Below, one piece after another: positions 1 through 32,331 of a stretch of DNA of 32,331 nt. A program made the position numbers and the translations under genes. A model generated the notes under the pieces. It saw only the letters and a program-made list of their open reading frames with translations. It searched no databases and was not told where the DNA came from. Each line of letters opens with the position of its first letter. The stretch's first letter is position 1. This stretch comes from a virus: the UHGV virus genome UHGV-0737708; one strand, 5' to 3'.

Positions 1-60
1 AGAATTTTCTCTTTATAAATAATATTAGATTGATTCACTTTCTTTTTAGAGGATACCACT

Positions 61-519
61 ATGATCAATACTAAAACTCCTTTCGTACTTCTGGGTCTGA
101 ACTCTGAAAACTACGGTAACTTCCATATGCTAGAAGTTTTCGCTAATCGTGGTTATAACATCATTCGTCATTCCGAAGACTCCAACTACTCAACTGCTTT
201 CTACGCTTTAAAACGAAATGGTCGTCCTACTGTGATCATCGACTGTCTTACTGATGAAGGTCGTCTTCAATACAACGATATTCCAGCAATTATTGTTCGT
301 GATGACCTTCCGTTTGATGTTCGTGAATACGATGTTGATTTAGGCTCTTACTATGGGATCGCCGATCTTGACCAGATTATGGCTGATTACGGTAAAGAAA
401 CCGCTCAGGAAGCCCCAGAAGAAGATGAACAAGACGAAGATGACGACGACTACGCACCAATCTGTTTTTCTTCTCAGAATGGCTTCTACGGTTACGATGA
501 AGGCTTAGATATGCTGTAA
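61..519 (+). CDS. Hypothetical strongly acidic protein (152 aa); C-terminal third is a run of Asp/Glu
   Basis: ATG at 61 with GAGGA Shine-Dalgarno 8 nt upstream; open frame to TAA; E. coli-optimal codon choice (cgt, ctg, ggt). No recognisable catalytic motif. Confidence 0.6.
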   Translation: MINTKTPFVLLGLNSENYGNFHMLEVFANRGYNIIRHSEDSNYSTAFYALKRNGRPTVIIDCLTDEGRLQYNDIPAIIVRDDLPFDVREYDVDLGSYYGIADLDQIMADYGKETAQEAPEEDEQDEDDDDYAPICFSSQNGFYGYDEGLDML

Positions 520-554
520 GTTAGGTCAACCCTTTGGCGTCTTGTCAAGGGGTA

Positions 555-583
555 TTGACAAAATTTTATGACTTTTTTATGAT
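555..583 (+). promoter_or_regulatory. Sigma70-like promoter: -35 TTGACA (555-560), 17-nt spacer, -10 TATGAT (578-583); overlaps palindrome TTGTCAA(542-548)/TTGACAA(555-561)
   Basis: Consensus hexamers with canonical 17-nt spacing read directly; about 55 nt upstream of the ATG at 640. Further TTGACA (592-597) and TTGACC (611-616) follow. Confidence 0.5.
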
Positions 584-639
584 TATCGCACTTGACAACT
601 TTGAGACTATTTGACCTAGATTTGTAAAGAGGATGTAAC

Positions 640-972
640 ATGAAAGAATTTACCATCACTAAATCCCTGTATGACTGGACTGTTAAAATCTCCGGCAAAA
701 CCGTTTCTGTAACCCCTAGCCATGTAGAAAATGATTGGGGTGTATCCCGTGAAACTATCTCCCGTAGTATGCATGTTCCGTTTGATCTGATGTCCTTAAC
801 TGGTATTCATGCAATGCTGGAAGTTCGCGAGCAATTCGAAGCTGGTAATCACAATGCAACTCCAGTTAGCAATCACCTTCTTACTAATGAAGAACGTGAA
901 ATCATCGAAAACTGGCGTTATGAATATGCGATTCCTTATTATGAAGAAGACCAAGTAGAAATCGATTGGTGA
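640..972 (+). CDS. Hypothetical protein (110 aa)
   Basis: ATG with AGAGGA Shine-Dalgarno; sits downstream of the promoter-like cluster; no recognisable motif. Confidence 0.6.
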   Translation: MKEFTITKSLYDWTVKISGKTVSVTPSHVENDWGVSRETISRSMHVPFDLMSLTGIHAMLEVREQFEAGNHNATPVSNHLLTNEEREIIENWRYEYAIPYYEEDQVEIDW

Positions 973-1060
973 TAAATTTCTATTATAAATAAAATTGTTC
1001 CGGTTGAGATGCCGGAACTAGGAGGATCAATCACTAAACCGTTTAAGGGGAATTAATACT

Positions 1061-1891
1061 ATGAATACTGTTACCGTTATGAATACTGCTAAAACTGCTT
1101 CCGTGTCTCTGGTTGTTGATAACACCAAACCGCTGACCATGTCTTCTCGTCAGATCGCTGAATTTACCGGAAAAGAACACCACAAAGTTAAAGTTGATAT
1201 AACTAAGATGTTGAATGCTCTAGGTTATGAAGATCACGCGAAGTTTCGCGTCATCTATTTTGACCAATACGGACGCGAACAAAACGAATATCAACTAGAC
1301 GAAGAAATGACTCTGACTCTTGTCACTGGTTACGATGTTAAGCGTCGAATGGTTGTTATTCAGGAATGGAAACGACTGAAAGAAGAAAATGAAAAACTGC
1401 GTTCTCAGCAAGTCAATCCATACGCAAACATGACTAAGCTCGATTGGATTCGCGAGGCAATGGAACTGGAAGCTGCAAACGAACAACTGATTCAGGAAAA
1501 GAATCAGTTGGTTGAATTGCATGTTCGTAAAGCTATCGACACTCACAGCTTAACCCGTCTTTTGGGCGAAAAACGAGGCTCTACGAAGGTACAAATGATT
1601 CTGAAAGGATTGTGTGCGGCTGGTGTTCTTGAGCGTCGTCTGGATGCTTCTGGTAAGCCTAACGGCTATGATCTGCTTCCTCCTGGCTATATGTTCGCTC
1701 GTATGTCGGCACACGGTCAGATCGAGTTCACTGCTGATGCCATCCCGCATCTTGTAAAACTCGGATTGCTTGAAGAAGAAAAGGCCGCAACTTTGAAATT
1801 GCCACAGCCGAACAACTCACGAGCAATCGTCAATAATACTGCTTTGCTGATTCGTCAGAATGCTGGATCACTGGAACACTTCGGACTGTAA
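1061..1891 (+). CDS. Rha-family phage regulatory protein / antirepressor-like (276 aa)
   Basis: N-terminal region (SRQIAEFTGKEHHKVKVDI ... LTLVTGYD) matches the Rha-domain pattern as I recall it; coiled-coil middle; AAGGGGA ribosome-binding site; terminator follows. Confidence 0.6.
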   Translation: MNTVTVMNTAKTASVSLVVDNTKPLTMSSRQIAEFTGKEHHKVKVDITKMLNALGYEDHAKFRVIYFDQYGREQNEYQLDEEMTLTLVTGYDVKRRMVVIQEWKRLKEENEKLRSQQVNPYANMTKLDWIREAMELEAANEQLIQEKNQLVELHVRKAIDTHSLTRLLGEKRGSTKVQMILKGLCAAGVLERRLDASGKPNGYDLLPPGYMFARMSAHGQIEFTADAIPHLVKLGLLEEEKAATLKLPQPNNSRAIVNNTALLIRQNAGSLEHFGL

Positions 1892-1899
1892 TAATTTTT

Positions 1900-1925
1900 G
1901 CCCCTGAATTTCAGGGGCTTTTTTG
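1900..1925 (+). terminator. Rho-independent terminator (GCCCCTGAA/TTCAGGGGC stem plus T run)
   Basis: Perfect 9-bp stem followed by TTTTTTG immediately after the stop of the 1061..1891 gene. Confidence 0.75.
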
Positions 1926-2063
1926 TATCTGTAGATGCGCTGAAAGTTAAGCACATCCCCTCAATTTTGAGGGCATCCCTCCAGATTTGGATGCATCTAT
2001 AGATCAGTCCAGATTTGGACTCAACTTAGAGATGAGCGCAGTTTTGCGCCGATTGTTTTACAT

Positions 2064-2089
2064 ACAAAAAAGCCACTCCGAAGAGTGGC
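2064..2089 (-). terminator. Rho-independent terminator for the leftward gene ending at 2105
   Basis: On the minus strand: GCCACTC-TTCG-GAGTGGC hairpin followed by TTTTTTG; lies just 3' of the minus-strand gene 2105..2335. Confidence 0.7.
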
Positions 2090-2104
2090 AAAGAGAATCA
2101 AAAC

Positions 2105-2335
2105 TCAAAAACCTGTTGCTTCTACGATCTGACCATCACCGATCTGAACATAGAATTTAATGTCTAACTTCTTCATATTCTTATAGAATTGGGCGATTGA
2201 GATCCCATGTTCACTAAGAATCTGTTCTTTCGCTTCCTTACCACGATCCGCTGTATAGTAAGCGTAGGCAATATCAGCCATCTGTTCTTGAGTGAATCGT
2301 GCCGGACGACCGCGAGTAGCTTTAGTCATAGTCAT
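2105..2335 (-). CDS. Small putative DNA-binding protein (76 aa); basic N-terminus KATRGRPARF plus helix-turn-helix-like segment
   Basis: ATG preceded by AGGAGA; basic AT-hook-like N-terminus; terminator downstream on the same strand. Confidence 0.5.
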   Translation of the reverse strand: MTMTKATRGRPARFTQEQMADIAYAYYTADRGKEAKEQILSEHGISIAQFYKNMKKLDIKFYVQIGDGQIVEATGF

Positions 2336-2365
2336 TTTCTCCTAAACAATAGTGATTTCTCAATA

Positions 2366-2968
2366 TTATTTAGAGGACTTAGATTTTATCTTGAACATGG
2401 GTGAGTCGTCAACCGACATAAAGAACTCTGCCTTAATCCCGTACTTCTTCAACCGTGAATAATATGTACCCCGACTTATATCAACCTTGCGAAGCACTTC
2501 AAAGAAGGATTTAGGATCGTTGTAATAGTGGCTGTACTTCACGTTAGCGAGTTCAACGAATAGTTCCCTTGTATCACCATAGCCTTTCTTAAAAGCTATG
2601 TTACGATAGCGTGTAATAGCGTGATTCAATCTCTTCTGTTTCAACACTTCTCGGATCGGCTTCCACTGCAACCGATAGATAGGACCGTCATCAATGCGAT
2701 AATAACGCTTGATATCAAAATCAAACCAATCTCGGACTCTCCGAAACTCTGTATGTGATGTTCTATGCTTCTTAAAGAAGTTGTGAACGTCTGTATAGCC
2801 ATTATCACGGTAAAATTCTATTAAAATCTCTTTCGCTTCCTCACGGCTAAAACCGGATGTTGTGTAATCAGTCTTTAAGTGCTTATGTTTTACTGGCAAA
2901 CGATATTCATGATCGGTACAAGACAAGGCTAATTCTAATTCATCTCTTTGTTGCTGATTAATTAGCAT
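2366..2968 (-). CDS. Hypothetical protein (200 aa), basic, function unknown
   Basis: ATG at 2968 preceded by AAGGGGG ribosome-binding site; co-oriented with 2105..2335; no catalytic motif recognised. Confidence 0.55.
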
Positions 2969-3055
2969 ACAACCCCCTTAAATCTTAATACCCGTATTTA
3001 TCAAAAAATCAACAATTTAATAAATACCTTCATATTTCGTAATGAGGGTAATTAC

Positions 3056-4963
3056 ATGAAACTAATTTCTAATAAGGCCAAATTAAAAAAGATTCTCAAA
3101 AATGCAGCCAAATATATTACGCCACCGCCTAAACTACTTCCATCGGAATGGTGCGAAGCGAATATGGTGCTGGTAGATGGTCCTCAAGCTGGGGATAAAG
3201 TTAAATTGCTGTCATTCCAGAAAGGCATGATTGATGCTCCTTTCCTTGAGAATAAGAAAAAGTATGTTCTGATGACCAGTGCGCAGATCGGAAAGACTAC
3301 CATCCTGAACGGTATCCTGTTTAACCAGATGGCTAACGATCCATGCAATATGATTATCGGACAATCAACCGCTAAAGAAATGTCTCAATATCTCGCTGGT
3401 AAGATCCGACCGTCTATCGAAGCATGTGATGCATTAAAAGACGTGGTTACAGACAAGAATGATCGCAATTCTGTTAATAACAACAATCAGCTCCAGCTCA
3501 AATCAAACCACTTCCTTTATATGGTATCGCTTACTAGTCCATCAACCCTGCGCGGTAAGACTGCAAAGGTCGGACTACTAGACGAAATCGATGCTGCTAC
3601 AGCCTCAGAAGAAGGTGATCCGGTGGCACTGGCTGCTAACCGTTTAACTACCTTTGGTGATGAAGGCCGATTAGTCGTATCCAGCACCCCGACCAGTAAG
3701 CTCGGAAGCATTAACCAGCAATGGTTATCAAGCGATATGCGTATGTTTTTTGTTCCGTGTCCTCATTGCGGTAGACACCAGGTGATCGAGTGGGAAAACG
3801 TTCAATTTGAATGGCGTAACATCGATGGTAAGAACTTACCCGATCCTGATACCGCTCGTTATATTTGCCCCCACTGTAAGCAATCATGGACAGAAGGAGA
3901 GCGGATCAGGGCGGTAGCTGCTGGTGAATGGCGAGTAACGAGAGAAAGCGAGGTAGCAGGATTCTGGATCAGCCGTCTGTATTCACCTTTCAGCACGATC
4001 CGCGCTTGTGTGGTTGATTTTAGTCATGCGTGGCAATCCTTTGATTTACAATCATTTTATAACACAGTGTTAGGCAAGGTATACGACGATCAGGACACGG
4101 CAGTAGAAGCAAATGAACTGGAACAACTCAAAACAGATGTTTCTATCGAGAATATCCCTGATGACGTGATTTTCTTGTGCTCAGGAATTGACCAGCAATT
4201 GGACCGCGCAGAATCTACCATCTTAGGTGTAGCGAAAGATAAGGTTTACATTCTGGATCACCGCAGCTTTTACGATCATAACTGTGAACGATATGAATCA
4301 CCTGTATGGGATCGTCTGGTTAACTTCAAGAAAACCAAATTCTATAACGTTAATGGTGAACGTGTACCAATGCTCGCCAGCTTCCTTGATACATCGAACG
4401 GTCGATTCACTCAAGCCGGATACCGTATTTGCGGCAAGTGGAAGAACCTACACGCTATCAAAGGTAGTTCATCTGGTAATGCTCCAGTGATTCCGGTTAA
4501 ACCGACCCGCACAGGTGGTCATGAATTGCTTATGCTGGGTGTTAACGTTGGGAAATCCGCTGTTCGTGAAATGCTGGTTAGAAACCTGAAAGACAATCCT
4601 CACATCGGCTTAGAAATATCAGAAACCGTTCCTGATGATTATCTCGATCAGCTTTTGAGTGAATCCATCAAGCGTACTACTACTGGCGTGCGTTGGGTGA
4701 AAAATCCAGGTAGTACCCGAAACGAGGCTCTCGACTGTCTGGTTTATAGCTATGCTGCTTCTCGCTACGTTCTTTCAAAAATGTCATGGGATAAACTCAT
4801 TGCAATGAAAGACAGCTTAAACCGTGTTGTCGAAGAACCCGTAGAAGCTCCTAAATCGCAATCTGACGAGCAAATCGAAGAAACTAAGCCAATCACACGA
4901 CCGCAACGTAAAAACATCGCCAGACGCCCAAATAGAGGCCGTAGCTGGGTAACATCGTTCTAA
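3056..4963 (+). CDS. terL: Terminase large subunit, lambda GpA family (635 aa)
   Basis: Walker A-like SAQIGKT; paired zinc-ribbon cysteines CPHCGRH ... CPHCKQ; C-terminal [13 protein letters not shown] matching the lambda gpA nuclease region as recalled; followed by a portal gene. Confidence 0.88.
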
Positions 4964-5035
4964 TAACTCGCCGTCCTTCGGGGCGGCTTACTCCTAAATA
5001 TTGTTAATCCAATAACAATTAAATAAGGGGTAATT

Positions 5036-5533
5036 ATGAGTTTAGAACTAATTCCCTTAGTAATTCGTAAAGGCGAAAAAATCACGCTGGCGAATGAAGA
5101 GGGTGTAACAATTCAGGTAGGAAATAATAATAAAGGTATCATCTATCAGGTTGATGATTCTCCGGCTAATCACGAGATTAAAACCTTAGATTTTGCCGAA
5201 GGTAAATATACCATCGTAACCACTTTGGAAGATGAACTGGTGTCAATGCAGGAATTAACTGTATTGCCAGTATTCGCCAAACAATCCAAAAAAGAATATC
5301 TGCGGGAAACTATCGCCTTAATAGAGCAAGTTATTTTTGCCCGTTTATCTGGGGACGAAGCCGCATTATCTCAAATGACCGTGAAAGGGAATACTTTCGC
5401 CTATGAGTCAGTGGCTGTTCTCCAGCAATTAAAGACTGATTATGAACGTCAGTTATCTAAAGTAATTCAAGCCGAACGACGTAAACAGGGAATTAGCCCG
5501 ATTAAAAATATCAAATTACGTCTTACGCGATAA
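5036..5533 (+). CDS. Hypothetical protein between terminase and portal (165 aa)
   Basis: ATG with TAAGGGGTAAT motif upstream; lambda gpW-like position, but no sequence evidence for a function. Confidence 0.55.
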   Translation: MSLELIPLVIRKGEKITLANEEGVTIQVGNNNKGIIYQVDDSPANHEIKTLDFAEGKYTIVTTLEDELVSMQELTVLPVFAKQSKKEYLRETIALIEQVIFARLSGDEAALSQMTVKGNTFAYESVAVLQQLKTDYERQLSKVIQAERRKQGISPIKNIKLRLTR

Positions 5534-5543
5534 GGGGTAAATC

Positions 5544-7055
5544 ATGTTTAATCTTTTTCGACGCAAAAAGGCGGTAGAAACTCCAGTTAAAACTAATCAC
5601 CGCCAGCAACAACAAAAAATCTTTATCGACAAACAAGTAGAAAAATTCCAGAAAGATTTGTCTAAGCGTTCTTTGGGCTTAGTCGGTGATCGAATTGATG
5701 GTGCACTTCAACAAGATACCATCACAGGAACCTTCAACAAGGCTCTCAAATCAAACGGTAAGCGCCTTTATGATCAGGGTCGTACTCTGGCTATAAACAA
5801 TGCTGTAGGTAAGCGATACAAGCAGTATATCGTTGACCAAGTTGTTGGTACGGGGCTTGATCCGAAGCCATCAATCGTTAAATCAAATGGCAAACTTGAC
5901 ACCGCACTGAATAAGCAGATCGAGAATGCTTTCTGGAAGTGGGCGCAGAGTGCTAAACGCTTCTCTCGCAACGGTCGCTTTAACTTCCGTGAAATGCTGG
6001 CAATGGCAGAATCTGAACGTGTTCAGGGTGGAGAATGCTTCATCGTTTTAACCAAAGAAAACAATGAGTTACAAGTTTCTATTCTGTCTGCTGATAGGTG
6101 CGACTGGTCGCTTAGTCGTGAAATAAGCAAAGACCGCGCGATCTATCAAGGGATTGAGTATGACGTAGACACAATGCGCCCTGTAGCATACTGGTTTAGA
6201 AAAATCAATCTACTGACTCAGACCTACACTGGCGAAAATTATCGCGTAGATGCTTCTCAGGTGTGCCACTACTACCAGCCACTGTGCGCGGAAAGTTTAC
6301 GTGGTGTGACTGACTTCCTGCCAGTGATTAAGGATATTGCGCATCAAGAAGCGTTCCGCGAAACCGCGATCATCCAGAAACGTATTGCAGCTAGCTCTAT
6401 GGGCTTTATTGAACGTCCGAAAGATTCTGGTGACGATTTTGATACTGGTGAAGAGGATGAACAATATCAAGCGCCGGAAGTAGTACAGGACTTTGCACCG
6501 GGTACTATTCAGGAATTGCCGGAAGGGGCAACGATCAAGAGCATCCAGGCGACGCAAAGCGGTGATGATTTCAATTCCTTCAATGATGCGATGTTTACTA
6601 GCGTATCAATGGGCTTAGGCGTGTTCAAACAGGGCTTAACAGGAGATTGTTCACAGATCAACTACTCAGCCGCACGTTTTGGGGAACTAACCCAGCGTAA
6701 CCGTGTTAAAGCACTGCAAAACAAATTAATTGAAACAGTGGTATTGCCAATTTTCGAAGCATATCTACGCCATTATTCCGCGCGTGGTATTGTTCCGATT
6801 CGTATTACTGCAATTCCGCATATTATCGATAATACAACTATTATTCGTCCGCGTTTTGAATCCGTCGATCCTATTAAAGACGTAAACGCCGAGATTGCTT
6901 TAATTCAAAATGGTCTTAAATCACGTACTGCCGTTATATTAGAACGTGGTGATGATCCTGAAAAAGTATTCTCAGAGATTCAAGCCGAAAAGAGCGCACT
7001 AAATATTATCGTTAATGGCGAGGGTGAAGAAAAAAATTCCCCAGCCGATCCCTAA
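5544..7055 (+). CDS. Portal protein (503 aa)
   Basis: Size and position directly between the large terminase and the prohead protease/capsid gene; acidic segment near the C-terminus; TAAGGGGTAAA ribosome-binding site. Confidence 0.72.
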   Translation: MFNLFRRKKAVETPVKTNHRQQQQKIFIDKQVEKFQKDLSKRSLGLVGDRIDGALQQDTITGTFNKALKSNGKRLYDQGRTLAINNAVGKRYKQYIVDQVVGTGLDPKPSIVKSNGKLDTALNKQIENAFWKWAQSAKRFSRNGRFNFREMLAMAESERVQGGECFIVLTKENNELQVSILSADRCDWSLSREISKDRAIYQGIEYDVDTMRPVAYWFRKINLLTQTYTGENYRVDASQVCHYYQPLCAESLRGVTDFLPVIKDIAHQEAFRETAIIQKRIAASSMGFIERPKDSGDDFDTGEEDEQYQAPEVVQDFAPGTIQELPEGATIKSIQATQSGDDFNSFNDAMFTSVSMGLGVFKQGLTGDCSQINYSAARFGELTQRNRVKALQNKLIETVVLPIFEAYLRHYSARGIVPIRITAIPHIIDNTTIIRPRFESVDPIKDVNAEIALIQNGLKSRTAVILERGDDPEKVFSEIQAEKSALNIIVNGEGEEKNSPADP

Positions 7056-7100
7056 TAACCAACGGGGGCGCAATGCCCCCAATTAATTAAAGGTGATTAA

Positions 7101-9104
7101 ATGCTTAAATTTCGCCGCGATCTTAACGGTTACGGTGGAGTTATTAACGAAGGGCATAACGATCAATACGAATTTGAAATTGCTTTCTCCAGTGAACAGC
7201 CTTATCAGCGCCAATTCTGGGATGAGCAAAATCAAGAAATGGTGGTATTAGATGAAATTCTGGTACATACACCGGAAGCGGTTGATCTGTCTCGTCTGAA
7301 TAATAACGCTCCGTTGCTGTTTAATCATAATTTCGATAATCACATTGGTGTCGTTTGTAACGCTCGAATCGATGCGGATAACGTAGGTCGTGCTCTGGTT
7401 AAATTCTCTAAGCATGGCACTTTGGCTAATGATATTCGCAATAAAGTCATTGAAGGTACGATGGAAAAAATTTCTGTCGGTTATGACATTAAAGAATATC
7501 ACATCGACTACACCAAAGGACAATTGATTGTTACTAAGTGGGCACCATACGAATTAAGTTTCGTTACCGTTCCTGCTGACGATACGGTCGGTTTAAATCG
7601 CTCTCTAAATACTATCACAGTTAATTTGGAGGCTAAACGCGATATGACTAAAGAACAAATCGAAGAAATCAAAGAAGAACAAGAATCCGCTCAGGTTGAA
7701 GAAACTCCGGTAGAAGAAAATAAAGAATCGGAAGTTGAAGAAACTCAAGAGCGCCAAGTTGAAGAGAATAAAGAAGATGAAAATCTCGAAGACGGAAAAG
7801 ACGCTGAACATCCTGAAAGTGTTGATGATGATAGTTCAACTGTTCGGGAAGCAGAAGAAGTAAAAGAAGAACGTGAAGCCGCTCCGGTTGAAGAAGAAAA
7901 AACCGAGGAAGTGGCTGAACGTTCCGAAGAAGACGAATTAGAAATTCGCGAAATTGCACGCGAACTAAATATTGACGACGAAGAATTAAAACGCGCATTG
8001 GCAGTTAAAGATATGACGCCGGAAGCATTCCGCACTAAGGCACTAAATAACATTACCAATGCTCAACGTAATAACGAACAAATTAATAAGGAACAAATCA
8101 TGGAAAAAACTTTCGATCTTAATAACGTAATCCGCTCCCTGGTAGATGGCGACGTGCTCGGCGCTCATGAAGCTGAATATTCCGCAATGGCTGCTACTGC
8201 AACTATGCAGCGTGGTCGTGCTGCTCGTGGTGGCTCTGTATTCGTTCCTGCTGCTGCTATGCGTGCTGCTGCTGCTGGTAACACCAAAGCTGACCTGACT
8301 GCTATCACCGACGAAAAACTGCTGACTGAATCCTACATCGAAATGCTGATGCCGGAATCCGTTCTGGGTCGTCTGGGTGTGACTGTTTACAGTGGCTTGA
8401 CTGCTCCGACCGCTATTCCAAAAATGACTAAATCCAGCGTTGACGCTTTCGGCTTCGTTGATGAAAACGGTGCTGCACCGGAAGGCAAAGCTGAATTTGC
8501 AAACGTGAAACTGTCTCCTAAGACTTTTGCTGGTGGCAACCCGATCAGCCGTCAGAGCATTAAAACCGTTCCGGGTATCGCTACCCTGATCACTGATCAC
8601 ATCAACCAGGCTGTTCGCATCAAACTGGAACAACTGATTCTGTCTGACAAAGACAATGAGCGCGGTCCTGCTGGTCTGGTTAAACAACTGGTTGATGCAA
8701 GCCGTGTTACTAAGAAAGCCGCTTTCAGCTACAAAGACTTCCTGAAAGAAATTGCAGCACTGACCGACGCTGGCGTTCCTGCTCAGGCGATCAAGTTTGC
8801 GATGAGCGGTGCAACTGCTGCTGAACTGGAATCTACCCTGAAAGATAATGGTGTTTCCGGTTATATCATCGAAAACGGCAAACTGGCTGGTTACGATGTA
8901 GTTACTTCTGGTGTTATCCCGGCAGATCACATCGTTCTGGGTGACTTCTCCGGTATTACTATCGGTGAGTGGGGCGGTCTGGAACTGGATATGGACGACA
9001 CCACCTACCGTGCACAGTCCGCTATCGTTCCGCGTATCTGGGTAGATCTGGACTATGTTGTAACCCAGCCGGAAGCTCTGAAAGTTCTTCACATCTCCGA
9101 ATGA
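7101..9104 (+). CDS. Fused prohead protease (HK97 family) - acidic scaffold-like linker - major capsid protein (HK97 fold), 667 aa
   Basis: N-terminus carries prohead protease signatures (PLLFNHNFDNHIGVV, ISVGY, ELSFVTVPADD); residues ~190-330 are Glu-rich low complexity; C-terminal ~330 aa is Ala/Gly-rich with very strong E. coli-optimal codon bias, as expected for a major capsid protein. Confidence 0.85.
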   Translation: MLKFRRDLNGYGGVINEGHNDQYEFEIAFSSEQPYQRQFWDEQNQEMVVLDEILVHTPEAVDLSRLNNNAPLLFNHNFDNHIGVVCNARIDADNVGRALVKFSKHGTLANDIRNKVIEGTMEKISVGYDIKEYHIDYTKGQLIVTKWAPYELSFVTVPADDTVGLNRSLNTITVNLEAKRDMTKEQIEEIKEEQESAQVEETPVEENKESEVEETQERQVEENKEDENLEDGKDAEHPESVDDDSSTVREAEEVKEEREAAPVEEEKTEEVAERSEEDELEIREIARELNIDDEELKRALAVKDMTPEAFRTKALNNITNAQRNNEQINKEQIMEKTFDLNNVIRSLVDGDVLGAHEAEYSAMAATATMQRGRAARGGSVFVPAAAMRAAAAGNTKADLTAITDEKLLTESYIEMLMPESVLGRLGVTVYSGLTAPTAIPKMTKSSVDAFGFVDENGAAPEGKAEFANVKLSPKTFAGGNPISRQSIKTVPGIATLITDHINQAVRIKLEQLILSDKDNERGPAGLVKQLVDASRVTKKAAFSYKDFLKEIAALTDAGVPAQAIKFAMSGATAAELESTLKDNGVSGYIIENGKLAGYDVVTSGVIPADHIVLGDFSGITIGEWGGLELDMDDTTYRAQSAIVPRIWVDLDYVVTQPEALKVLHISE

Positions 9105-24333: not shown

Positions 24334-24612
24334 ATGACTGAAATTATATATGGCGGTATCGGTGTTATCGCCTTAATTTGCGGTGGTCTTTGGAGACTTC
24401 ACCGAAATCAATTAGCCACAGAAAATAGATTGTCGAAATTGGAATCCAGCGACGCATTGTTAAACCAGAAGTTTGAGACGATGCAAAGTAACCATGACCA
24501 GATCGCCGAGAGAGTTTATCGCATGGAACAAACACTACACGGTATAGAGAAGAAAGTGGTTGCGATGGACGCCAAATTTGACCAAGTTCTCGACATACTC
24601 AAACAAAAATAA
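24334..24612 (+). CDS. Small membrane protein (92 aa): one N-terminal transmembrane helix plus coiled coil; possible lysis accessory protein
   Basis: Hydrophobic residues 5-21 then charged coiled-coil; GGGGGCGTA ribosome-binding site; located in the cluster upstream of the endolysin. Confidence 0.45.
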   Translation: MTEIIYGGIGVIALICGGLWRLHRNQLATENRLSKLESSDALLNQKFETMQSNHDQIAERVYRMEQTLHGIEKKVVAMDAKFDQVLDILKQK

Positions 24613-24630
24613 TAATAAAGGGGTGAATAT

Positions 24631-24801
24631 ATGAAGAATAAACTTAAGAAATATTTTGGTTATCTCTTGATTATCGCCCTCACTTATAACGTAGCAATTA
24701 GACCTCTGCTAACGTCCTTTGGGCTTGAACTCCCGGCTATGACCGTGGATGAACAATTGCTAAGGACACTGGCGGGGGTCTTTTCGTTATTAGGGGGCTA
24801 A
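24631..24801 (+). CDS. Small hydrophobic protein (56 aa), holin-like candidate; not in the supplied ORF track
   Basis: Translated by hand: MKNKLKKYFGYLLIIALTYNVAIRPLLTSFGLELPAMTVDEQLLRTLAGVFSLLGG; AAAGGGGTGAATAT ribosome-binding site; stop overlaps the next start. Confidence 0.35.
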   Translation: MKNKLKKYFGYLLIIALTYNVAIRPLLTSFGLELPAMTVDEQLLRTLAGVFSLLGG

Positions 24802-24802
24802 C

Positions 24803-25486
24803 ATGGCAACCAGTACCAATAAACGAAACGCTCTAAGGACTAAGAAAGCGTTACGGCAATGGTCTGAAAAGGCAACCGATACATTCGAAAGGGCGATAGG
24901 GGAAGGGGCGATCTTTGCTGCTCGTGCACTACAGAAGAAGATTAACAAGAATGTTGATAGACCTACTCGCTGGACTCAGCAAGCTGTAGGTAATACCAAC
25001 TACAAGAACCGATCAGGGACGAGACACCAAATCTTCATCAAGGGCGCAAGGGATAAGGACAAGAAGATCGGCAGTCAGGATGACTATCTGAAACACTATT
25101 TCGATGGTGGCAAAATCAATAAGCTAGTTCCAATCGCTAACGGCAAGGTCTTAGACGCCCACGGGAACATTAAGGCCATCAAAGGCGGTAAGATGATGCG
25201 TAACATCGAAAATGGCAACTTCATCAAGGTAGAGAACCAGGAAGGGACTTTTATCATGAAGAAGTACAAGCCTAAGAAATCCCGAACCAAACGCGCTAAG
25301 AATGGATCGGCGGTGGCAAAACGTCGCTTAGAGAAACGCATACAGAAACAGAGTAAGCGAATTGTTGCCGTTAAGTCGGATAAAATTTCTACTCGTTATT
25401 CGACGCTAGGATCGTGGGAAAGCAACGAAGCAATGATGCTTAAGAACATCAATAAGCACATTAAATCGCGCATGAAATACGTTTAA
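24803..25486 (+). CDS. Highly basic Lys/Arg-rich protein (227 aa), function unknown
   Basis: ATG overlapping the upstream stop (TAACATG); composition extremely basic. Confidence 0.55.
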   Translation: MATSTNKRNALRTKKALRQWSEKATDTFERAIGEGAIFAARALQKKINKNVDRPTRWTQQAVGNTNYKNRSGTRHQIFIKGARDKDKKIGSQDDYLKHYFDGGKINKLVPIANGKVLDAHGNIKAIKGGKMMRNIENGNFIKVENQEGTFIMKKYKPKKSRTKRAKNGSAVAKRRLEKRIQKQSKRIVAVKSDKISTRYSTLGSWESNEAMMLKNINKHIKSRMKYV

Positions 25487-25524
25487 TCCATAAATACCCT
25501 CATAGAAACTTATGGGGGTATAAC

Positions 25525-25872
25525 ATGGCTAAAAATATTTTTACTGAATTTCCTACTTATCCGGTCGATCAGCTTTCCGGTATTTTTATTAATGGCATTA
25601 GCCCAGAATCAATGACTTATGATTTTGCGGCGAAGAGAGTTAAACATAAACAATATAAAGAATGTATCCGCGATCATGAAAAAGGGACCGTGTTTTGTGT
25701 CGCTACATTGGCTAAACGTCCTAAGTATCGTTTTCGTGTAGGACAAGAAGTTGATGTGGTTAATCCTTATAGCTTTAACTGTCTGGGTGATGCACGCGCG
25801 GTGTGTGTAGGCACTGCTCCTTATTATATCAAGGGTATGCGCTTTATTGGTTATATCTTCGAAATGATCTAA
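25525..25872 (+). CDS. Hypothetical protein (115 aa)
   Basis: ATG preceded by TATGGGGGTATAAC; open frame. Confidence 0.55.
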   Translation: MAKNIFTEFPTYPVDQLSGIFINGISPESMTYDFAAKRVKHKQYKECIRDHEKGTVFCVATLAKRPKYRFRVGQEVDVVNPYSFNCLGDARAVCVGTAPYYIKGMRFIGYIFEMI

Positions 25873-25881
25873 GGGGGTAAT

Positions 25882-26235
25882 ATGTTAAGTAAGCATTTTT
25901 CTCGCAAGGAATTTAAATGTAAATGCGGAAAATGTGATTATGATACAATCGACGCTGAATTACTGGTAATTCTTGAGGATGTACGAGAGCACTTCGGTAA
26001 ACCAGTGATTATTAACAGTGGCAACCGTTGCCCGACTCATAACAAGAATGTAGGCGGTGCAACCAACAGCTATCACGTTCGAGGCCGTGCGGCTGACATT
26101 GTGATCAAGGGTGTCTCCCCTGATATTGTCCATGCTTATCTTGATGGGAAATATCCTACTCAATACGGCTTAGGCAAATATAAAACCTTTACGCATATCG
26201 ATTCCAGATCGAAAAAATCACGATGGAATGGATAA
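25882..26235 (+). CDS. Endolysin, peptidase M15 family (L-alanyl-D-glutamate endopeptidase type), 117 aa
   Basis: Zinc-binding signature SGNRCPTHN ... SYHVRGRAADI ... H characteristic of small M15 phage endolysins; TAAGGGGGTAAT ribosome-binding site; strong terminator follows. Confidence 0.8.
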   Translation: MLSKHFSRKEFKCKCGKCDYDTIDAELLVILEDVREHFGKPVIINSGNRCPTHNKNVGGATNSYHVRGRAADIVIKGVSPDIVHAYLDGKYPTQYGLGKYKTFTHIDSRSKKSRWNG

Positions 26236-26240
26236 AATTA

Positions 26241-26267
26241 AAGCGCCTCTAGTGGGCGCTTTTTTTG
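26241..26267. terminator. Bidirectional terminator between the convergent endolysin and helicase genes
   Basis: AAAGCGCC-TCTAGT-GGGCGCTTT with TTTTTTT on the plus strand and an A/T run on the other side. Confidence 0.7.
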
Positions 26268-27758
26268 TTATATAGCAATTGTTTTAGTTGCATAGCTGAA
26301 CTTGTCGGTCAAATAATAGCGGATTCTCTCAAGTGCATGTTTTACCGCATAATTTTTATGCTTGACTTTTCCGTTACGACCGAATATACACAGATGATCT
26401 ATAAGATCCCAGACCGTTGCAATATCCTTAGAACCATGTTTACGCAACGCACGACCGATACTCTGACGAACGATAGTTGATTCCTTCACTGGATGACCGA
26501 AAATAACATGATGCAAGTTCTTGATGGAAACACCAGTAGAGAACACACCATAAGACGCAACACAGATGAAGCCAGTGTCACCTTCCGCCATTTTCTTAAA
26601 TTCATCACGTTCTTCTGTCTTAACTCCACCATCAATATAATAAACCTTGTCGTGTACCTTCTGTAACGCATCATACATAAGTTTTCCGTGCTTAGTATTG
26701 CGGAACATCAGGAATACGTTTTCGCCCTTCTTAGCGAGTTTTAGCGCCAAATTGCAAGCAAACTTATTACGTCGTGGGTTAGATGTAATATACTTGATCT
26801 CTTCCGCATATTCTCTCCCCTTAACCGCGCTACATTCCTCATCGGTATAACGAAGGAAAAGACAGTTAATTTTCAGTTTCGTAACTTGACCTTCTTCCAT
26901 CAGGCGGTCAATACTCACGATCTTAGAAATATCACCGAAAAGCCCGACATACTGCATTAAATGGCACTTTGATTCTTTCGGGGAACCAGTCATACCAATT
27001 TTAAACTGGCAATGATTCATTCCGTTAATGATATTGGTAATATTTTTGGCACTAGCCTTATGTGATTCATCAACTATCAACATTCCATATTGTTTGAACC
27101 ATTCAGGAGGCATCTTGCAAGCTGATTGCCAGGTACTAACCGTGATTAACCTGTCTCCCGGATGTTTCCCGCTACCACTCATCATTGTATGAATTGCTTC
27201 ATAAGGGAATAGCCTATAATCGATGAAATCATCCCTCAGTTGAACCACTAGCGATGTAGTCGGAACAATGATTAGAACTTTTCCGGTGTAATGCTCTAAG
27301 TACCAACGAGACAGCATACAAGCAATCAATGACTTACCCGCACTGGTAGGAAGAACCAGCATTCTACGGCGATTATGGATACCCTGAAAGACTGCCTCCC
27401 TTTGATACCAATAAGGATTGATTTTATTGCTACCGGAATACACTTCTAAGGAATCAATCCATTCATTAATCGCGTCTTTGGTTACATCTTCCTTCTCAAG
27501 CAATCTGGGGTCAATCCAGACTGAATACCCCATATTTTTAACAAAGACACCCAACGTTTTTAATAGTCCAATTGGTAGGGTGTTTTCATGCGTAAACAGT
27601 CTTATTCGTCCATCCCAGCCAGAATACTTGTAACGGGGGCTAAACCTAGCCCCTTCAACCTCAAACGAGAAATAATCTCTTAATTCCATTCCGATAGAAG
27701 GAGAGCAATCAACCTTAACGAAACTGTAATCTTGAAAATGAATTTTAATATCTTGCAT
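26268..27758 (-). CDS. uvsW: SF2 DExH-box helicase resembling T4 UvsW (about 496 aa from ATG at 27758; the track start at 27767 is a GTG)
   Basis: Motif I LPTSAGKS, motif II DESH, C-terminal helicase motifs; N-terminal region resembles the UvsW DNA-binding domain as recalled; start ATG overlaps the upstream gene's stop. Confidence 0.78.
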   Translation of the reverse strand: MQDIKIHFQDYSFVKVDCSPSIGMELRDYFSFEVEGARFSPRYKYSGWDGRIRLFTHENTLPIGLLKTLGVFVKNMGYSVWIDPRLLEKEDVTKDAINEWIDSLEVYSGSNKINPYWYQREAVFQGIHNRRRMLVLPTSAGKSLIACMLSRWYLEHYTGKVLIIVPTTSLVVQLRDDFIDYRLFPYEAIHTMMSGSGKHPGDRLITVSTWQSACKMPPEWFKQYGMLIVDESHKASAKNITNIINGMNHCQFKIGMTGSPKESKCHLMQYVGLFGDISKIVSIDRLMEEGQVTKLKINCLFLRYTDEECSAVKGREYAEEIKYITSNPRRNKFACNLALKLAKKGENVFLMFRNTKHGKLMYDALQKVHDKVYYIDGGVKTEERDEFKKMAEGDTGFICVASYGVFSTGVSIKNLHHVIFGHPVKESTIVRQSIGRALRKHGSKDIATVWDLIDHLCIFGRNGKVKHKNYAVKHALERIRYYLTDKFSYATKTIAI

Positions 27759-28327
27759 TAGTTCCACTCCACACTTGCAATATTCTTTATATTGTTTAGT
27801 GATTTATTGCAGTAGTGGAATGTTTCAGTTTTGCCGTATTCAATCCCGCCTATACCCACATCCAGTAATCTCTTTATTGCTCTTTCAGTGGCTAAAGCAT
27901 GTTTCATTGATGGCATTTCACCAGCAAAGACAATATCAAAGTTATGACCGGGATTGCGTACACCCAGATTAATGCGTCGCTTGATGATTGACTTTGTTAC
28001 ACCAAATTTACCAATATCCCCTGATTTCATTACATAGAGATAAGGCACACCCGCTTTATATTGAAAGTAATCACTTTTGAGACATGCACAGCGTTTACCT
28101 TCATTAAGCAGGTTGGTAGCTGATTTGTCGGCTCTATTGCCGCATCGGGTACATGTAAGAGCAATTCTTGAATGAAGCCCTTTAAACTCACCCAGAAAGC
28201 CATGAAAGACTAACGGTAAGTCCTTCTCTTTGATGTGAGTCAGAATGCGTTGTTCTAATGCCGATGGAGTTACAGCACGGGAGGATTTAGGAGTAAAAAC
28301 AATATCTTTAGCCATCACTGGAATCAT
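27758..28327 (-). CDS. Zinc-ribbon plus GIY-YIG-like (T5orf172-type) domain protein (189 aa)
   Basis: CTRCGNR ... CAC cysteine cluster; YLYVMKSGDIGKFGVTK ... RR ... ATERAIKRLL resembles the T5orf172 / GIY-YIG-like pattern; GTGAGGT ribosome-binding site. Confidence 0.6.
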   Translation of the reverse strand: MIPVMAKDIVFTPKSSRAVTPSALEQRILTHIKEKDLPLVFHGFLGEFKGLHSRIALTCTRCGNRADKSATNLLNEGKRCACLKSDYFQYKAGVPYLYVMKSGDIGKFGVTKSIIKRRINLGVRNPGHNFDIVFAGEMPSMKHALATERAIKRLLDVGIGGIEYGKTETFHYCNKSLNNIKNIASVEWN

Positions 28328-28480
28328 ATAGACCTCACTTTTTAACTTATAGGCATAACCTCAATATGGTTGGTTTGGGATTTAGGGTCGCGTATTATAC
28401 ACATTCAGATAGAGAATGCAATAGTAAGACAATTTTCTCTAATAAATAGTAGTGAGCTTATTATTTTAGAGGAAACTACT

Positions 28481-29656
28481 ATGAAACTTGCTTACGCTGC
28501 CGAAATTCCTTTTGTTAAGAAAACTCGCGGTTTATCGCCGGAAGAGTACCAACAACGAATCATCGCTAAACTGGAACCTGCTTTCGTATTTGGTGGATTT
28601 ATCCTACCGTGGAAGGGTAATCACACTTACTTTCGAATCTACAATTTAGACACACAAGAATATAAGGACTACAAATTACGCAAACTGGAAGATACTAACG
28701 GGGGTGAGTTATTCCAGACTGAAAAGGCTGTATGGTTGAAAATGGAATCTCGTTGTAATGAGAAGGGAAAGAAATTCCTCGGATGGCAAGGAGAATGGAA
28801 AGGGCGAAATAGAACGAAAGCCCGTGTTTTGTGCCCTGAACACAATCAAATCATGACGCCATCTCTATTACATGCTCTCAAAGATGATTTCGATTTTGAT
28901 TGCAAAATCTGTATGGCTGAAAAATCCCAACGGGTAAGAAGTGGCAAGACTTTTGATGAAGTTATTAAGGACAAAGAGACAATCATCAATGCACGTTGCG
29001 AGAGTACGCCTTACACCTTCAAAGGATTCATCATAAACACCCCACACCTAAAGGATGTTAAATTTAAAACTCATTGCAAGACACATAACCACGAATGGGA
29101 ATCTCATTTAAGATGTGCTGATTCTTTCACTTGTCCGCTTTGCATTAAAGACCAACTGGTGCAACTGTCTAGCCGGACTTATCAGGGTAAGGCTAGTTTC
29201 TACATTCAATTATTAGATGACAAATTTATTAAATTTGGAATCACTACCCGGAAACCAGAAGAACGAATGAGAGAGCAAACCAGAAAGAGCAACTTCACTC
29301 ACCGCTTAATCTTTACTCATGAGTTTGAGGATGGTTGGAAAGCCGTTGATTTAGAGCATGAAGTAAAACAACGCTTCAAGACTCATGCAGCACCCTACAA
29401 AGATTTCAAGGATGGATGGTCGGAAACTCTGACTATTGATGAGTTGCCACACTTACAGCAACTGGTTTATGACTACCTAACCAATCAACCGGACGAGGCT
29501 AATATGTGGGTATCCCCGAAAGATGTATTTGATGACGATACATTCAAGCTACATACTCACTTCTACGGCATCAATAAACCGGAATTTTTCTGTATTGATG
29601 ACGACAGTCCTGATTTAATGGATGAATACTTTAATGCTCTCTTAGACGCTGCCTAA
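28481..29656 (+). CDS. Zinc-ribbon plus C-terminal GIY-YIG-like (T5orf172-type) domain protein (about 391 aa from ATG at 28481; the track start 28370 is not an ATG)
   Basis: AGAGGA ribosome-binding site before ATG 28481; Cys pairs CPEHN ... CKIC and CKTHNHEW ... CPLC; FYIQLLDDKFIKFGITTRKPEERMREQ ... LEHEVKQRF matches the same domain pattern as the 189-aa protein. Confidence 0.6.
   Translation: MKLAYAAEIPFVKKTRGLSPEEYQQRIIAKLEPAFVFGGFILPWKGNHTYFRIYNLDTQEYKDYKLRKLEDTNGGELFQTEKAVWLKMESRCNEKGKKFLGWQGEWKGRNRTKARVLCPEHNQIMTPSLLHALKDDFDFDCKICMAEKSQRVRSGKTFDEVIKDKETIINARCESTPYTFKGFIINTPHLKDVKFKTHCKTHNHEWESHLRCADSFTCPLCIKDQLVQLSSRTYQGKASFYIQLLDDKFIKFGITTRKPEERMREQTRKSNFTHRLIFTHEFEDGWKAVDLEHEVKQRFKTHAAPYKDFKDGWSETLTIDELPHLQQLVYDYLTNQPDEANMWVSPKDVFDDDTFKLHTHFYGINKPEFFCIDDDSPDLMDEYFNALLDAA
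28671..28724 (+). repeat. 54-nt segment inside the 28481..29656 gene, exactly repeated at 32278..32331
   Basis: Base-by-base comparison: ACAAATTACGCAAACTGGAAGATACTAACGGGGGTGAGTTATTCCAGACTGAAA at both places. Confidence 0.9.
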
Positions 29657-29684
29657 CGCAATTAAATTAAAAATGGGTACAGAT

Positions 29685-29700
29685 GTACCCCTTAAAGTGT
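29685..29700. terminator. Perfect palindrome GGGTACA-GA-TGTACCC between convergent genes
   Basis: 16-bp dyad read directly; A/T-rich on the minus-strand downstream side. Could alternatively be a recombinase site. Confidence 0.4.
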
Positions 29701-29729
29701 TTAGCTCGTTATACGTCGATTTAGGCCGC

Positions 29730-31409
29730 TTAAATTCCAAATTCCTGTAATGGACCTGGTATTTCTTCCACTGGTTTCCAGTTCTTATCTGTCAGCATGT
29801 CTAAACATGGATGCAGAACAAGCCCGTTGCTCTCCAGAATCTGCCTATCATTGATAGTCTTCAAATCGACAAATATTTGTCCTTTCCTCGTTCCTCTTGA
29901 ATTTTCTATTACAACTCTCTGGGTCTTTCCATCGATGTATTCCAGTACAAACAAGTTTTTGTTTCTGTCAATCCTGCTACACCCGATCCGCTTTAGAGCT
30001 TGCTTAATCTTAAACCGGACCTTTAGTCGTTCCTCGTTGTAAACATCTTCTAAATCAAATTCTGCGAGCTTCTCCCAGCCTTGAGAGTCAACAGAATACA
30101 TTTCCTCTTCTGCCATCTTGATCTGATTGTAGAGTGTTTCACGCTCGCTATTGAGGGTAGTAATCTGATCGGCTAGCTCCTTCGTTGCTCCTGTCATAGC
30201 AGAAAGGGCAATCAGGTTATCAATCTTGCGTGATATTTCATCAACCTGTACTTTCAACGCCGGAACCGGATTAGCCTTGTCCTCAGCAATCCAGATTTTA
30301 TCAGCCAGCAATTGCAATACAGCTTTCTCTAATTGATCACCTCGAAAACTCCAGTTTGGATGCTCGCAATCAAGTCTACGTGAACGGGTCGCATCACATG
30401 TATAACGATACTGGTCAGAACGTTTGTTCGTTCCCTTCACTTTAACCATAGCGCAACCGCAATGATCACATTTCAATAGGCCAATACCACTAAGCAGGGG
30501 GATCGGTTTAACTTCTTCCTTGTCTCCAAAGTTCCATGCTCTAGCACCAATATTTTTCTTAAGGTGATAGAACGTAGGGTCATCAATAACACGAGGGTAA
30601 TAATCCTTTAACTCATAGTTAACGCCATCTACAGAGACCTCCTTGATACCAATCAAAGCGCGGGTATGAAACAACCTTTCAACCATTGCCCGTGACCATT
30701 TTGAATGCTTCTTGTTGCTAACCGCTGGTGGCGGTGTATAAGTCTCGTTAAGGTGATCCAGTATTTCGGCGGTTGAACGTCCATTCTTCCGTAATTCCAC
30801 AATCTCCTGAACAACAGGGAAGTACACCGGATGAGGCAGCACATAACCGGAAGTGGTATCCGTCCACCACATATTCTTTCCAACTTCCTCGATTGCCACT
30901 GCCGGATTCTGGGGATTTTCTTGATGGGCTTTAATCTTAATCAGTGCGCTTGAGTTAGTACGATTGCGCTTAGTCTGGCTTTCCTCATTACCACGGATGA
31001 ATAAAAGGATGGAGAACATCAGGTCCATCGGATTAGCGGTAACAGTATCCAGCGAGTAGATCTTGTTATCCATGCCAGTAACAATGGTTATTCCCCTACG
31101 GATGATTGAAAGGAATAACTCCTGCGCACTGACAATATCGGCACGGGATAAACGGTCCAAGTTTTCGATGAATAGCCAGCTACCAACAGGAACGGATCTA
31201 CCTATTGCATCAAGGAAACGAGATAGCGCCCCTGTTTTGGAGTTAGCACCTTTAAACGCAGATACACCCAGATCCTGATAATCATTTACCAGTTCTAAGT
31301 CATACTTTGCCGCAATCTCTCTCGCCATCCTGATTTGTCGTTCATAACTCGAACCATCACTCTGACGCATAGACGAGAAGCGAATATACGAATACAGTTT
31401 AGTTTTCAT
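29730..31409 (-). CDS. Large serine recombinase (about 559 aa from ATG at 31409; the track start 31424 is a TTG)
   Basis: N-terminal resolvase-type catalytic domain (YSYIRFSSMRQSDGSSYERQ with the R-x-S nucleophile context, ENLDRLSR); central recombinase domain; Cys cluster CDHCGC ... C ... C; C-terminal coiled coil. Confidence 0.8.
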   Translation of the reverse strand: MKTKLYSYIRFSSMRQSDGSSYERQIRMAREIAAKYDLELVNDYQDLGVSAFKGANSKTGALSRFLDAIGRSVPVGSWLFIENLDRLSRADIVSAQELFLSIIRRGITIVTGMDNKIYSLDTVTANPMDLMFSILLFIRGNEESQTKRNRTNSSALIKIKAHQENPQNPAVAIEEVGKNMWWTDTTSGYVLPHPVYFPVVQEIVELRKNGRSTAEILDHLNETYTPPPAVSNKKHSKWSRAMVERLFHTRALIGIKEVSVDGVNYELKDYYPRVIDDPTFYHLKKNIGARAWNFGDKEEVKPIPLLSGIGLLKCDHCGCAMVKVKGTNKRSDQYRYTCDATRSRRLDCEHPNWSFRGDQLEKAVLQLLADKIWIAEDKANPVPALKVQVDEISRKIDNLIALSAMTGATKELADQITTLNSERETLYNQIKMAEEEMYSVDSQGWEKLAEFDLEDVYNEERLKVRFKIKQALKRIGCSRIDRNKNLFVLEYIDGKTQRVVIENSRGTRKGQIFVDLKTINDRQILESNGLVLHPCLDMLTDKNWKPVEEIPGPLQEFGI

Positions 31410-31430
31410 ACCATTTCCAAACAAAAACGC

Positions 31431-31460
31431 CCCTACCGCGTATTATAACGATAGGGGCAT
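31431..31460 (-). terminator. Hairpin terminator after the leftward gene ending at 31475; its loop contains TATAAT
   Basis: Minus strand: GCCCCTA ... TAGGGGC stem followed by GTTTTTGTTT; the loop TATAAT could serve as a -10 for the recombinase gene. Confidence 0.45.
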
Positions 31461-31474
31461 TGGTTAGTAAGTCA

Positions 31475-31720
31475 TTAATATTTCTTTCCAGTTAGTTTTG
31501 CATCACGTTTATTAATATCCTCGATATGACTCCATACACACGCAGTAATAAAGTCGTCATCGTCACCAACTCCGGCAACCTGTGCTAATTCAGTACACAG
31601 TTGATTTAAAGAAGGTGCAACGGCAGCACGCTTGACACTATCACCCTGTACATATTGTTCGGCATTTGCAGCACCAACCAAACCCAGAGCAAGAACGATA
31701 CCAGCGATAATCTTTTTCAT
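31475..31720 (-). CDS. Small secreted protein with cleavable signal peptide (81 aa; predicted cleavage after ANA)
   Basis: MKKIIAGIVLALGLVGAANA-EQ signal peptide; AGAGGA ribosome-binding site. Confidence 0.5.
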   Translation of the reverse strand: MKKIIAGIVLALGLVGAANAEQYVQGDSVKRAAVAPSLNQLCTELAQVAGVGDDDDFITACVWSHIEDINKRDAKLTGKKY

Positions 31721-31749
31721 AATAGAATCCTCTTTGTTATTTGAATTAA

Positions 31750-32091
31750 TTAGTCTTTGAAGTCGATGGTCACGTTACCTTTAAGGGCAAGTTCCATTAA
31801 ACAACTGCGCTCATCCTTCATGCTCTTACACAATTTCATCCCGTAAACAACGAGATTATCTTTCTCTTTCCAATATTTTTGTTTATCTGCATAAACCTCG
31901 CTATATTCACTGTCTTTGAGTGAGAGAGCATTTTCTAACTGGCTAATCTCCTGATTCAGATCCTTAATCTCGGCCTTATTTGACCGGATAGTCTCTTGAT
32001 GTTGAGTATCGGAATAGTCATACCCACAAACAAATCCACCGATGCCACCAACACACACAGAAACAATAATTGCGTAGATAGTCTTTTTCAT
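31750..32091 (-). CDS. Small membrane-anchored protein with periplasmic coiled coil (113 aa)
   Basis: MKKTIYAIIVSVCVGGIGGFVCG hydrophobic N-terminus; AGAGGA ribosome-binding site nearly identical to that of the downstream gene. Confidence 0.5.
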   Translation of the reverse strand: MKKTIYAIIVSVCVGGIGGFVCGYDYSDTQHQETIRSNKAEIKDLNQEISQLENALSLKDSEYSEVYADKQKYWKEKDNLVVYGMKLCKSMKDERSCLMELALKGNVTIDFKD

Positions 32092-32132
32092 AATTGAATC
32101 CTCTTTGAATGAATTACGATATATTTATATCG

Positions 32133-32258
32133 TTAAAAGTTGATGCTGATTACCAGACCAAACACAACCGCACCAATCAAATCAATCCAGTTAATACACA
32201 ATCCGCTATATTCTTTCTTGAATGTCTTAGATGAAATGCCATCATGAAATTGTTTCAT
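32133..32258 (-). CDS. Very small hydrophobic protein (41 aa), not in the ORF track
   Basis: Hand translation of the minus strand: MKQFHDGISSKTFKKEYSGLCINWIDLIGAVVFGLVISINF; GGGGTGAGCA ribosome-binding site; co-oriented with the two downstream small genes. Confidence 0.3.
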   Translation of the reverse strand: MKQFHDGISSKTFKKEYSGLCINWIDLIGAVVFGLVISINF

Positions 32259-32277
32259 TGCTCACCCCATACTAACG

Positions 32278-32331
32278 ACAAATTACGCAAACTGGAAGAT
32301 ACTAACGGGGGTGAGTTATTCCAGACTGAAA
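32278..32331 (+). repeat. Window-terminal 54-nt exact copy of 28671..28724
   Basis: Exact identity read directly; sequence upstream of 32278 is unrelated to that upstream of 28671. Confidence 0.9.

Follow-up and report, generated by a model that had tools for sequence, protein, structure and literature searches.

Exact repeats at the end of an assembled phage sequence can arise in several described ways. One is the contig-end overlap of de Bruijn-graph assemblers, which is exact, runs to the last base, has the length of a common k value minus one and has no counterpart in related genomes; the repeated word usually comes from a true repeat (an IS element or an rRNA operon, for instance) or from the other end of a circular contig. 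By the convention in which k = 55 gives overlaps of k-1, the longest repeated terminal word is 54 nt. Chimeric reads, formed by template switching during library preparation or whole-genome amplification (e.g. MDA), join loci a few kilobases apart on one molecule through short microhomology. Tandem duplications that arise through microhomology in bacterial or phage DNA have junctions of duplication-type geometry, again with short microhomology. Finally, direct terminal repeats of phage contigs, the signature of circular or terminally redundant genomes, put one exact sequence at both contig termini.

The sequence analyzed here, referred to as the window, is a stretch of 32,331 nt from virus genome UHGV-0737708, and it is a lambda-like Escherichia coli prophage, integrated in ycdX. 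A first-pass annotation had pointed out that its last 54 nt (32278-32331) copy an internal stretch, 28671-28724, and direct comparison within the window confirms that the two are identical. The repeat shares with the de Bruijn overlap its exactness, its reach to the last base of the window and the lack of a counterpart in relatives, and its length would agree as well if k was 55; unlike in the usual overlap, the word here comes from single-copy coding sequence, 3.6 kb further upstream on this contig. We estimate a probability of roughly 0.7 that the terminal 50-54 nt are not phage genome at this position but short-read de Bruijn-graph contig-end junk. The repeat is true of the sequence but most probably not a feature of the genome. 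The features needed to follow the argument are:

28481-29656, plus strand: GIY-YIG (MUG113/T5orf172-clan) nuclease gene with CapR-homology domains (Pfam MUG113 and CapR; PHROG 681 'endonuclease')
28671-28724, plus strand: internal original of the 54-mer, in frame in the nuclease gene (residues 64-82 of the 391-aa product)
29730-31409, minus strand: large serine recombinase (prophage integrase), 559 aa in the annotation of relatives (Pfam Recombinase and Zn_ribbon_recom; PHROG 95 integrase)
31475-32091, minus strand: two small genes with related 5' ends, of 81 aa (31475-31720) and 113 aa (31750-32091)
32133-32258, minus strand: unannotated hydrophobic 41-aa ORF, with ribosome-binding region GGGGTGAG (minus strand) just left of the join
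32262-32281, minus strand: 3' end of a conserved small ORF (MLAFISFVGGSLTTMISLSYIVVSM... in relatives), truncated in the window by the join
32278-32281, plus strand: 4-nt ACAA microhomology (native ACGACAA/TATAAG against internal ACTACAA/ATTACG)
32282-32331, plus strand: terminal 50 nt foreign to this position, identical to 28675-28724; alignments of relatives all end at 32281

The gene set (from Pfam and PHROG matches) includes a lambda-type gpA terminase, a lambda-family portal protein, a J-like tail tip protein and a UvsW-like helicase, together with a 189-aa CapR-domain fragment, the GIY-YIG nuclease with its CapR domains and the large serine recombinase, for which a Resolvase domain is also reported. 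The nuclease gene is variable cargo, present in some relatives only, and RefSeq annotates its homologue in E. coli PSJ-22 as a GIY-YIG nuclease family protein. In PSJ-22, the prophage is ~36.8 kb long and splits ycdX. Mapping attL and attR in that strain against K-12 places the att crossover inside ycdX (attB ..CCGGAAA/TCCCAAAT..). Relative to these ends, the window begins ~4.1 kb inside the left end of the prophage and stops ~430 nt short of the right end. The right-hand 2.7 kb of the window is carried by 57 of 5,426 complete E. coli genomes, and a megablast search of an isolated-phage collection returned no phage that is similar at the DNA level. Close relatives occupy at least two other chromosomal sites, one adjoining a GntR/aminotransferase gene and one adjoining hicAB and a peptidase U32 gene.

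The 54-mer, ACAAATTACGCAAACTGGAAGATACTAACGGGGGTGAGTTATTCCAGACTGAAA, is present in the same orientation at both places, and a search of the window for its reverse complement found no copy. This pair is the sole exact repeat of at least 20 nt in the entire window, where ~1.6e-24 chance 54-mer pairs would be expected in 32 kb. The internal copy lies inside the nuclease gene, where the first-pass annotation had placed it (in a 391-aa gene of T5orf172 type); it is in frame and encodes (Y)KLRKLEDTNGGELFQTE(K), residues 64-82, also written YKLRKLEDTNGGELFQTEK. At the far end, identity continues to the final base of the window (32331). At the near end, the two copies are preceded by different bases (G at 32277, T at 28670), and agreement resumes at the next two positions 5', for 56/57 identity over 32275-32331; apart from this, the 300-nt stretches upstream of the copies are unrelated, in keeping with the earlier remark that unrelated sequence precedes the two. 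An abrupt start of the copy at 32278 is therefore right as to the upstream sequence, but the exact position needs correction: relatives show that the native sequence reaches 32281, and ACAA is common to both partners, so just 50 nt (32282-32331) are foreign to the position. As aligned, the two partners place the crossover inside ACAA.

Related genomes can be used to see what normally follows position 32281. The exact 48 nt directly left of the repeat, used as a query against IMG/VR, found 24 contigs. In all 24, the sequence after ...CATACTAACG is a native continuation, ACAATATAAGAAAGACTAATCAT... or ACAAGATAAG... (ACAA/TATAAG or GATAAG), and none of the 24 continues into nuclease-gene sequence; BLAST alignments of the window with these loci always end at 32281. 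A join probe of 120 nt spanning the join was likewise searched against the 5,426 complete E. coli genomes. It matches 57 genomes, always only to probe base 70 (window 32281), and in no place in the 5,426 genomes does its coverage reach 80%. Where the 2.7-kb query appears to be fully covered in a genome, the last piece is that genome's own nuclease gene 3.6 kb away; among the complete-genome matches listed, the 54-mer matches the nuclease gene only. Three public contig collections (viral, metagenome and species-representative genome) do not contain the join sequence either. In the search for a longer contig reaching past 32331, the exact helicase protein of the window had no entry in the protein index, and a pattern specific to its helicase allele had no match among the viral contigs. 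In the relatives, the native right-hand sequence continues from the join for ~430 nt to the prophage end, by way of the conserved small ORF. The native sequence missing from the window, as seen in PSJ-22 and in the native continuation of the 24 loci, encodes this small hydrophobic minus-strand ORF, which is conserved. The join cuts the ORF and falls ~430 nt short of the prophage end, and so coincides with no natural boundary. Hidden homology between the PSJ-22 native sequence right of 32281 and the internal region is not apparent either: their local alignment scores 23, within the range of shuffled sequence, which averages 20.9 (sd 2.5).

A 5'-truncated paralogue and a homing junction were among the origins first suggested for the repeat. 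In this reading, 32281 would be followed by a real second nuclease gene lacking its 5' part, placed there by ectopic homing or illegitimate recombination, and the window would hold its first 54 nt. The nuclease gene is variable and presumably mobile cargo in the prophage family, and the terminal copy is in frame with an ATG at 32244. That ATG, however, has no ribosome-binding site, and the copy begins at codon 64 rather than at a gene or cassette boundary. Relatives differ across ~26270 to ~29660, and the presence/absence boundaries around the nuclease region lie at ~26270, ~27865, 28400/28504 and 29630-29662, with none at 28671 or 32281. Moreover, the native sequence at 32281 is kept in L017, L019, PSJ-22 and NODE_11 (described below), all of which have the same nuclease gene as the window, and nuclease sequence is present at this site in 0 of the 24 + 57 relatives. 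We therefore consider a truncated paralogue very doubtful, and a homing junction is unsupported. A homing-endonuclease insertion junction in particular was rejected as a candidate, the join coinciding with no cassette boundary of the relatives that lack the endonuclease.

The position of the repeat, near the integrase gene and no more than ~430 nt from the right prophage end, might also suggest a natural genome-end or integration feature, such as a terminal redundancy, cos or an att-related repeat. We give this family of explanations almost no weight. Direct terminal repeats share with our case an exact repeat at a contig terminus, but here the partner copy is internal, 3.6 kb off, rather than at the opposite contig end, and the start of the window has no copy of it or any other repeat of at least 20 nt; for these two reasons terminal redundancy is excluded. 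As for a serine-recombinase att site, the attR crossover inside ycdX is ~427 nt past 32281 and its sequence shares nothing with the 54-mer, so this candidate was rejected as well. The cos region is probably in the left arm, outside the window, along with a Nu1-like small-terminase gene.

That Nu1-like gene is ~370 nt from attL, with the gpA large-terminase gene ~6.7 kb away. A GC-rich string (rc of locus L026, ~10376-10393) precedes the small-terminase gene by ~100 nt, and its reverse complement, CGAGGCGGGGAAAG, may resemble the P2/186 cohesive end. Immediately left of window position 1, relatives have no called genes across 1.1-1.4 kb (e.g. 2485-3802 in L054). The start of the window itself is collinear with relatives and free of junk sequence.

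The most informative relative is a second assembly. The exact nuclease protein of the window occurs in one indexed contig only, NODE_11_length_36108_cov_22.28 of ENA ERZ1024471 (NODE_11 below), an accession for which a literature search was without result. NODE_11 is also the nearest relative of the window, with 0 mismatches over 1-7891 and 2 over 24481-32281 (~15.7 kb compared). In this independent assembly of nearly the same genome the join is absent: past 32281, NODE_11 takes the native path for 37 nt (…GTTGTGAGACTACCTCC), followed by 48 nt of Illumina TruSeq indexed adapter, and there it ends. At its other end, 49 nt of adapter are joined 24 nt inside the Nu1-like small-terminase gene. Since NODE_11 stops in adapter 37 nt later than the join, the second assembly, too, ends in non-genomic sequence at this spot; the native path is therefore lost in both assemblies, which represent nearly the same phage, at points no more than 40 nt apart. 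Adapter junk and a chimeric internal copy are one class of artefact, in which an assembler without a competing path extends by the furthest-reaching read.

Some further details of NODE_11 can be given. The adapter is untrimmed Illumina TruSeq index-6 at both ends (L041 7839-7886; L054 1-49). From the native ends it is 392 nt to the attL crossover and 390 nt to the attR crossover, and the missing 782 nt are centred almost exactly on attP. An inverted repeat between the prophage arms was considered as a cause of these symmetric dead ends and rejected, as the arms form none.

The contig-end explanation can be given as a series of steps. Observed are the repeat itself, a join seen nowhere else, the native continuation of relatives and the adapter at the end of NODE_11; how the assembler proceeded, which k it used and that the join came from a chimera are what we infer. 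The native path would lose read support near 32281. One or more chimeric reads would then join ...ACTAACGACAA to ATTACGCAAAC... (...ACGACAA to ATTACGC...), a template switch on the ACAA microhomology being their probable source, and the chimeric path would be the assembler's only way forward. On reaching a word already in the graph, the 54-mer of 28671-28724, the assembler would stop. A stop at a word already used would give perfect identity, reach to the last base and a length of 54 nt, which is k-1 for k = 55 if, as we assume, the assembler follows that convention and 32331 is a contig end. SPAdes at K55 leaves an overlap of 55 nt, one more than the 54 nt here, and the name NODE_11 suggests SPAdes. 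That the first copy (28671) was passed unbroken and the halt came on re-entry would fit a join with no read-pair support beyond it.

The sequence around the join bears on how it was made. Microhomology of at least 4 nt (ACAA; 6 of 7 as AC.ACAA) is found in 1.7% of random joins in the window. Within 40 nt of the join there are also two short repeats, one direct (9 nt) and one inverted (8 nt), which occur together in 0.02% of random joins, by a test devised post hoc. With that proviso, these figures point to a homology-guided template switch rather than blunt ligation. Chimeric reads share with the join its short microhomology and the few kilobases between its partners on one molecule, and the nearby short direct and inverted repeats suit a homology-guided join of that kind. 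MDA chimeras are mostly inverted, whereas the join here is direct, and amplification of the source DNA would be an assumption.

The same features also fit a microhomology-mediated rearrangement in vivo, and this tells against an artefact. A segment of 3,607 bp (28675-32281), which comprises the nuclease gene without its 5' third, the integrase and the small genes, might really have been duplicated in tandem, or have given a circular by-product, by microhomology-mediated strand switching at AC(T/G)ACAA; the assembler would then have merged both copies and come to a halt when it met the repeat again. In orientation and geometry the join matches a tandem-duplication junction, the low frequency of such microhomology among random joins applies equally, and an assembler meeting a true repeat would likewise end the contig k-1 nt in. 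Known microhomology-mediated tandem duplications agree in geometry and short microhomology; here, in contrast, no second full copy is visible, and there is none in relatives. The join is found in 0 of ~80 related prophages, including the one with 2 differences in ~15.7 kb, and is missing from all collections scanned. The segment has no functional logic, as its ends fall at codon 64 of the nuclease gene and within a small ORF. In addition, a native exit path would coexist with the duplication, and an assembler stop at 32281 would be more likely. On this evidence we regard a tandem duplication as rather unlikely.

Taken together, the chance that the join is real, whether as a tandem duplication of the 3.6-kb integrase and partial nuclease segment or as an ectopic copy of the nuclease, microhomology-guided and near the genome end, seems to us low. 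The first-pass annotation had named four possible origins for the repeat, and the assembly join is the one now favoured. It had also taken exact identity as a sign of a recent event, which is unsafe, because an assembly graph yields exact identity up to a contig's last base by construction.

The choice of reading matters for how the sequence is used. A flush-ended exact repeat of k-1 length at a contig terminus is best treated as an assembly signature until reads contradict it; were this one taken for a duplication, a homing junction or a terminal redundancy, a spurious structural variant would enter the annotation of a prophage family that is widespread in E. coli. A real join would amount to an ordinary rearrangement mediated by microhomology, and its interest would be modest; as a true duplication or ectopic copy, it would be a nuclease-associated rearrangement caught shortly after it occurred.

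Several other observations were made on the window. The region from the M15 peptidase gene to the serine integrase (26236-29729) is a cargo hotspot. It holds the UvsW-like helicase, the CapR fragment and the GIY-YIG nuclease in the window; in relatives it holds an IS1-disrupted helicase, a Phage_Inh_N protein, unknowns of 332 aa and 345 aa, or almost nothing. The 667-aa 'major capsid protein' (7101-9104) has an S78 prohead-protease domain fused to a capsid domain, according to Pfam hits of the homologues in relatives. In the 1,177-aa tail-fibre gene, a 93-nt direct repeat (11140-11232 and 11293-11385, 77% identity, 153-nt spacing) indicates a putative internal repeat unit of the fibre shaft.

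The 113-aa gene varies in presence among relatives, and most are without it. It has in common with the 81-aa gene a 63-nt 5' region (31674-31736 and 32045-32107, 75% identity) that covers the ribosome-binding site and a signal-peptide-like start, and its loss in most relatives has apparently come about by recombination between these 63-nt repeats. Over ~54 nt, the same 5' region (31688-31741) also matches a hypothetical gene of RB49-like (Krischvirus) T4-type coliphages, at 85-88% identity. The motif TATAAATA was considered as a T4-late-promoter motif and rejected, its 3 matches against 2.2 expected giving no enrichment. Its copies, at 14-21 and 984-991 on the plus strand and 32122-32129 on the minus strand, each precede a gene start on the correct strand by 30-75 nt and are probably -10-like promoter elements.
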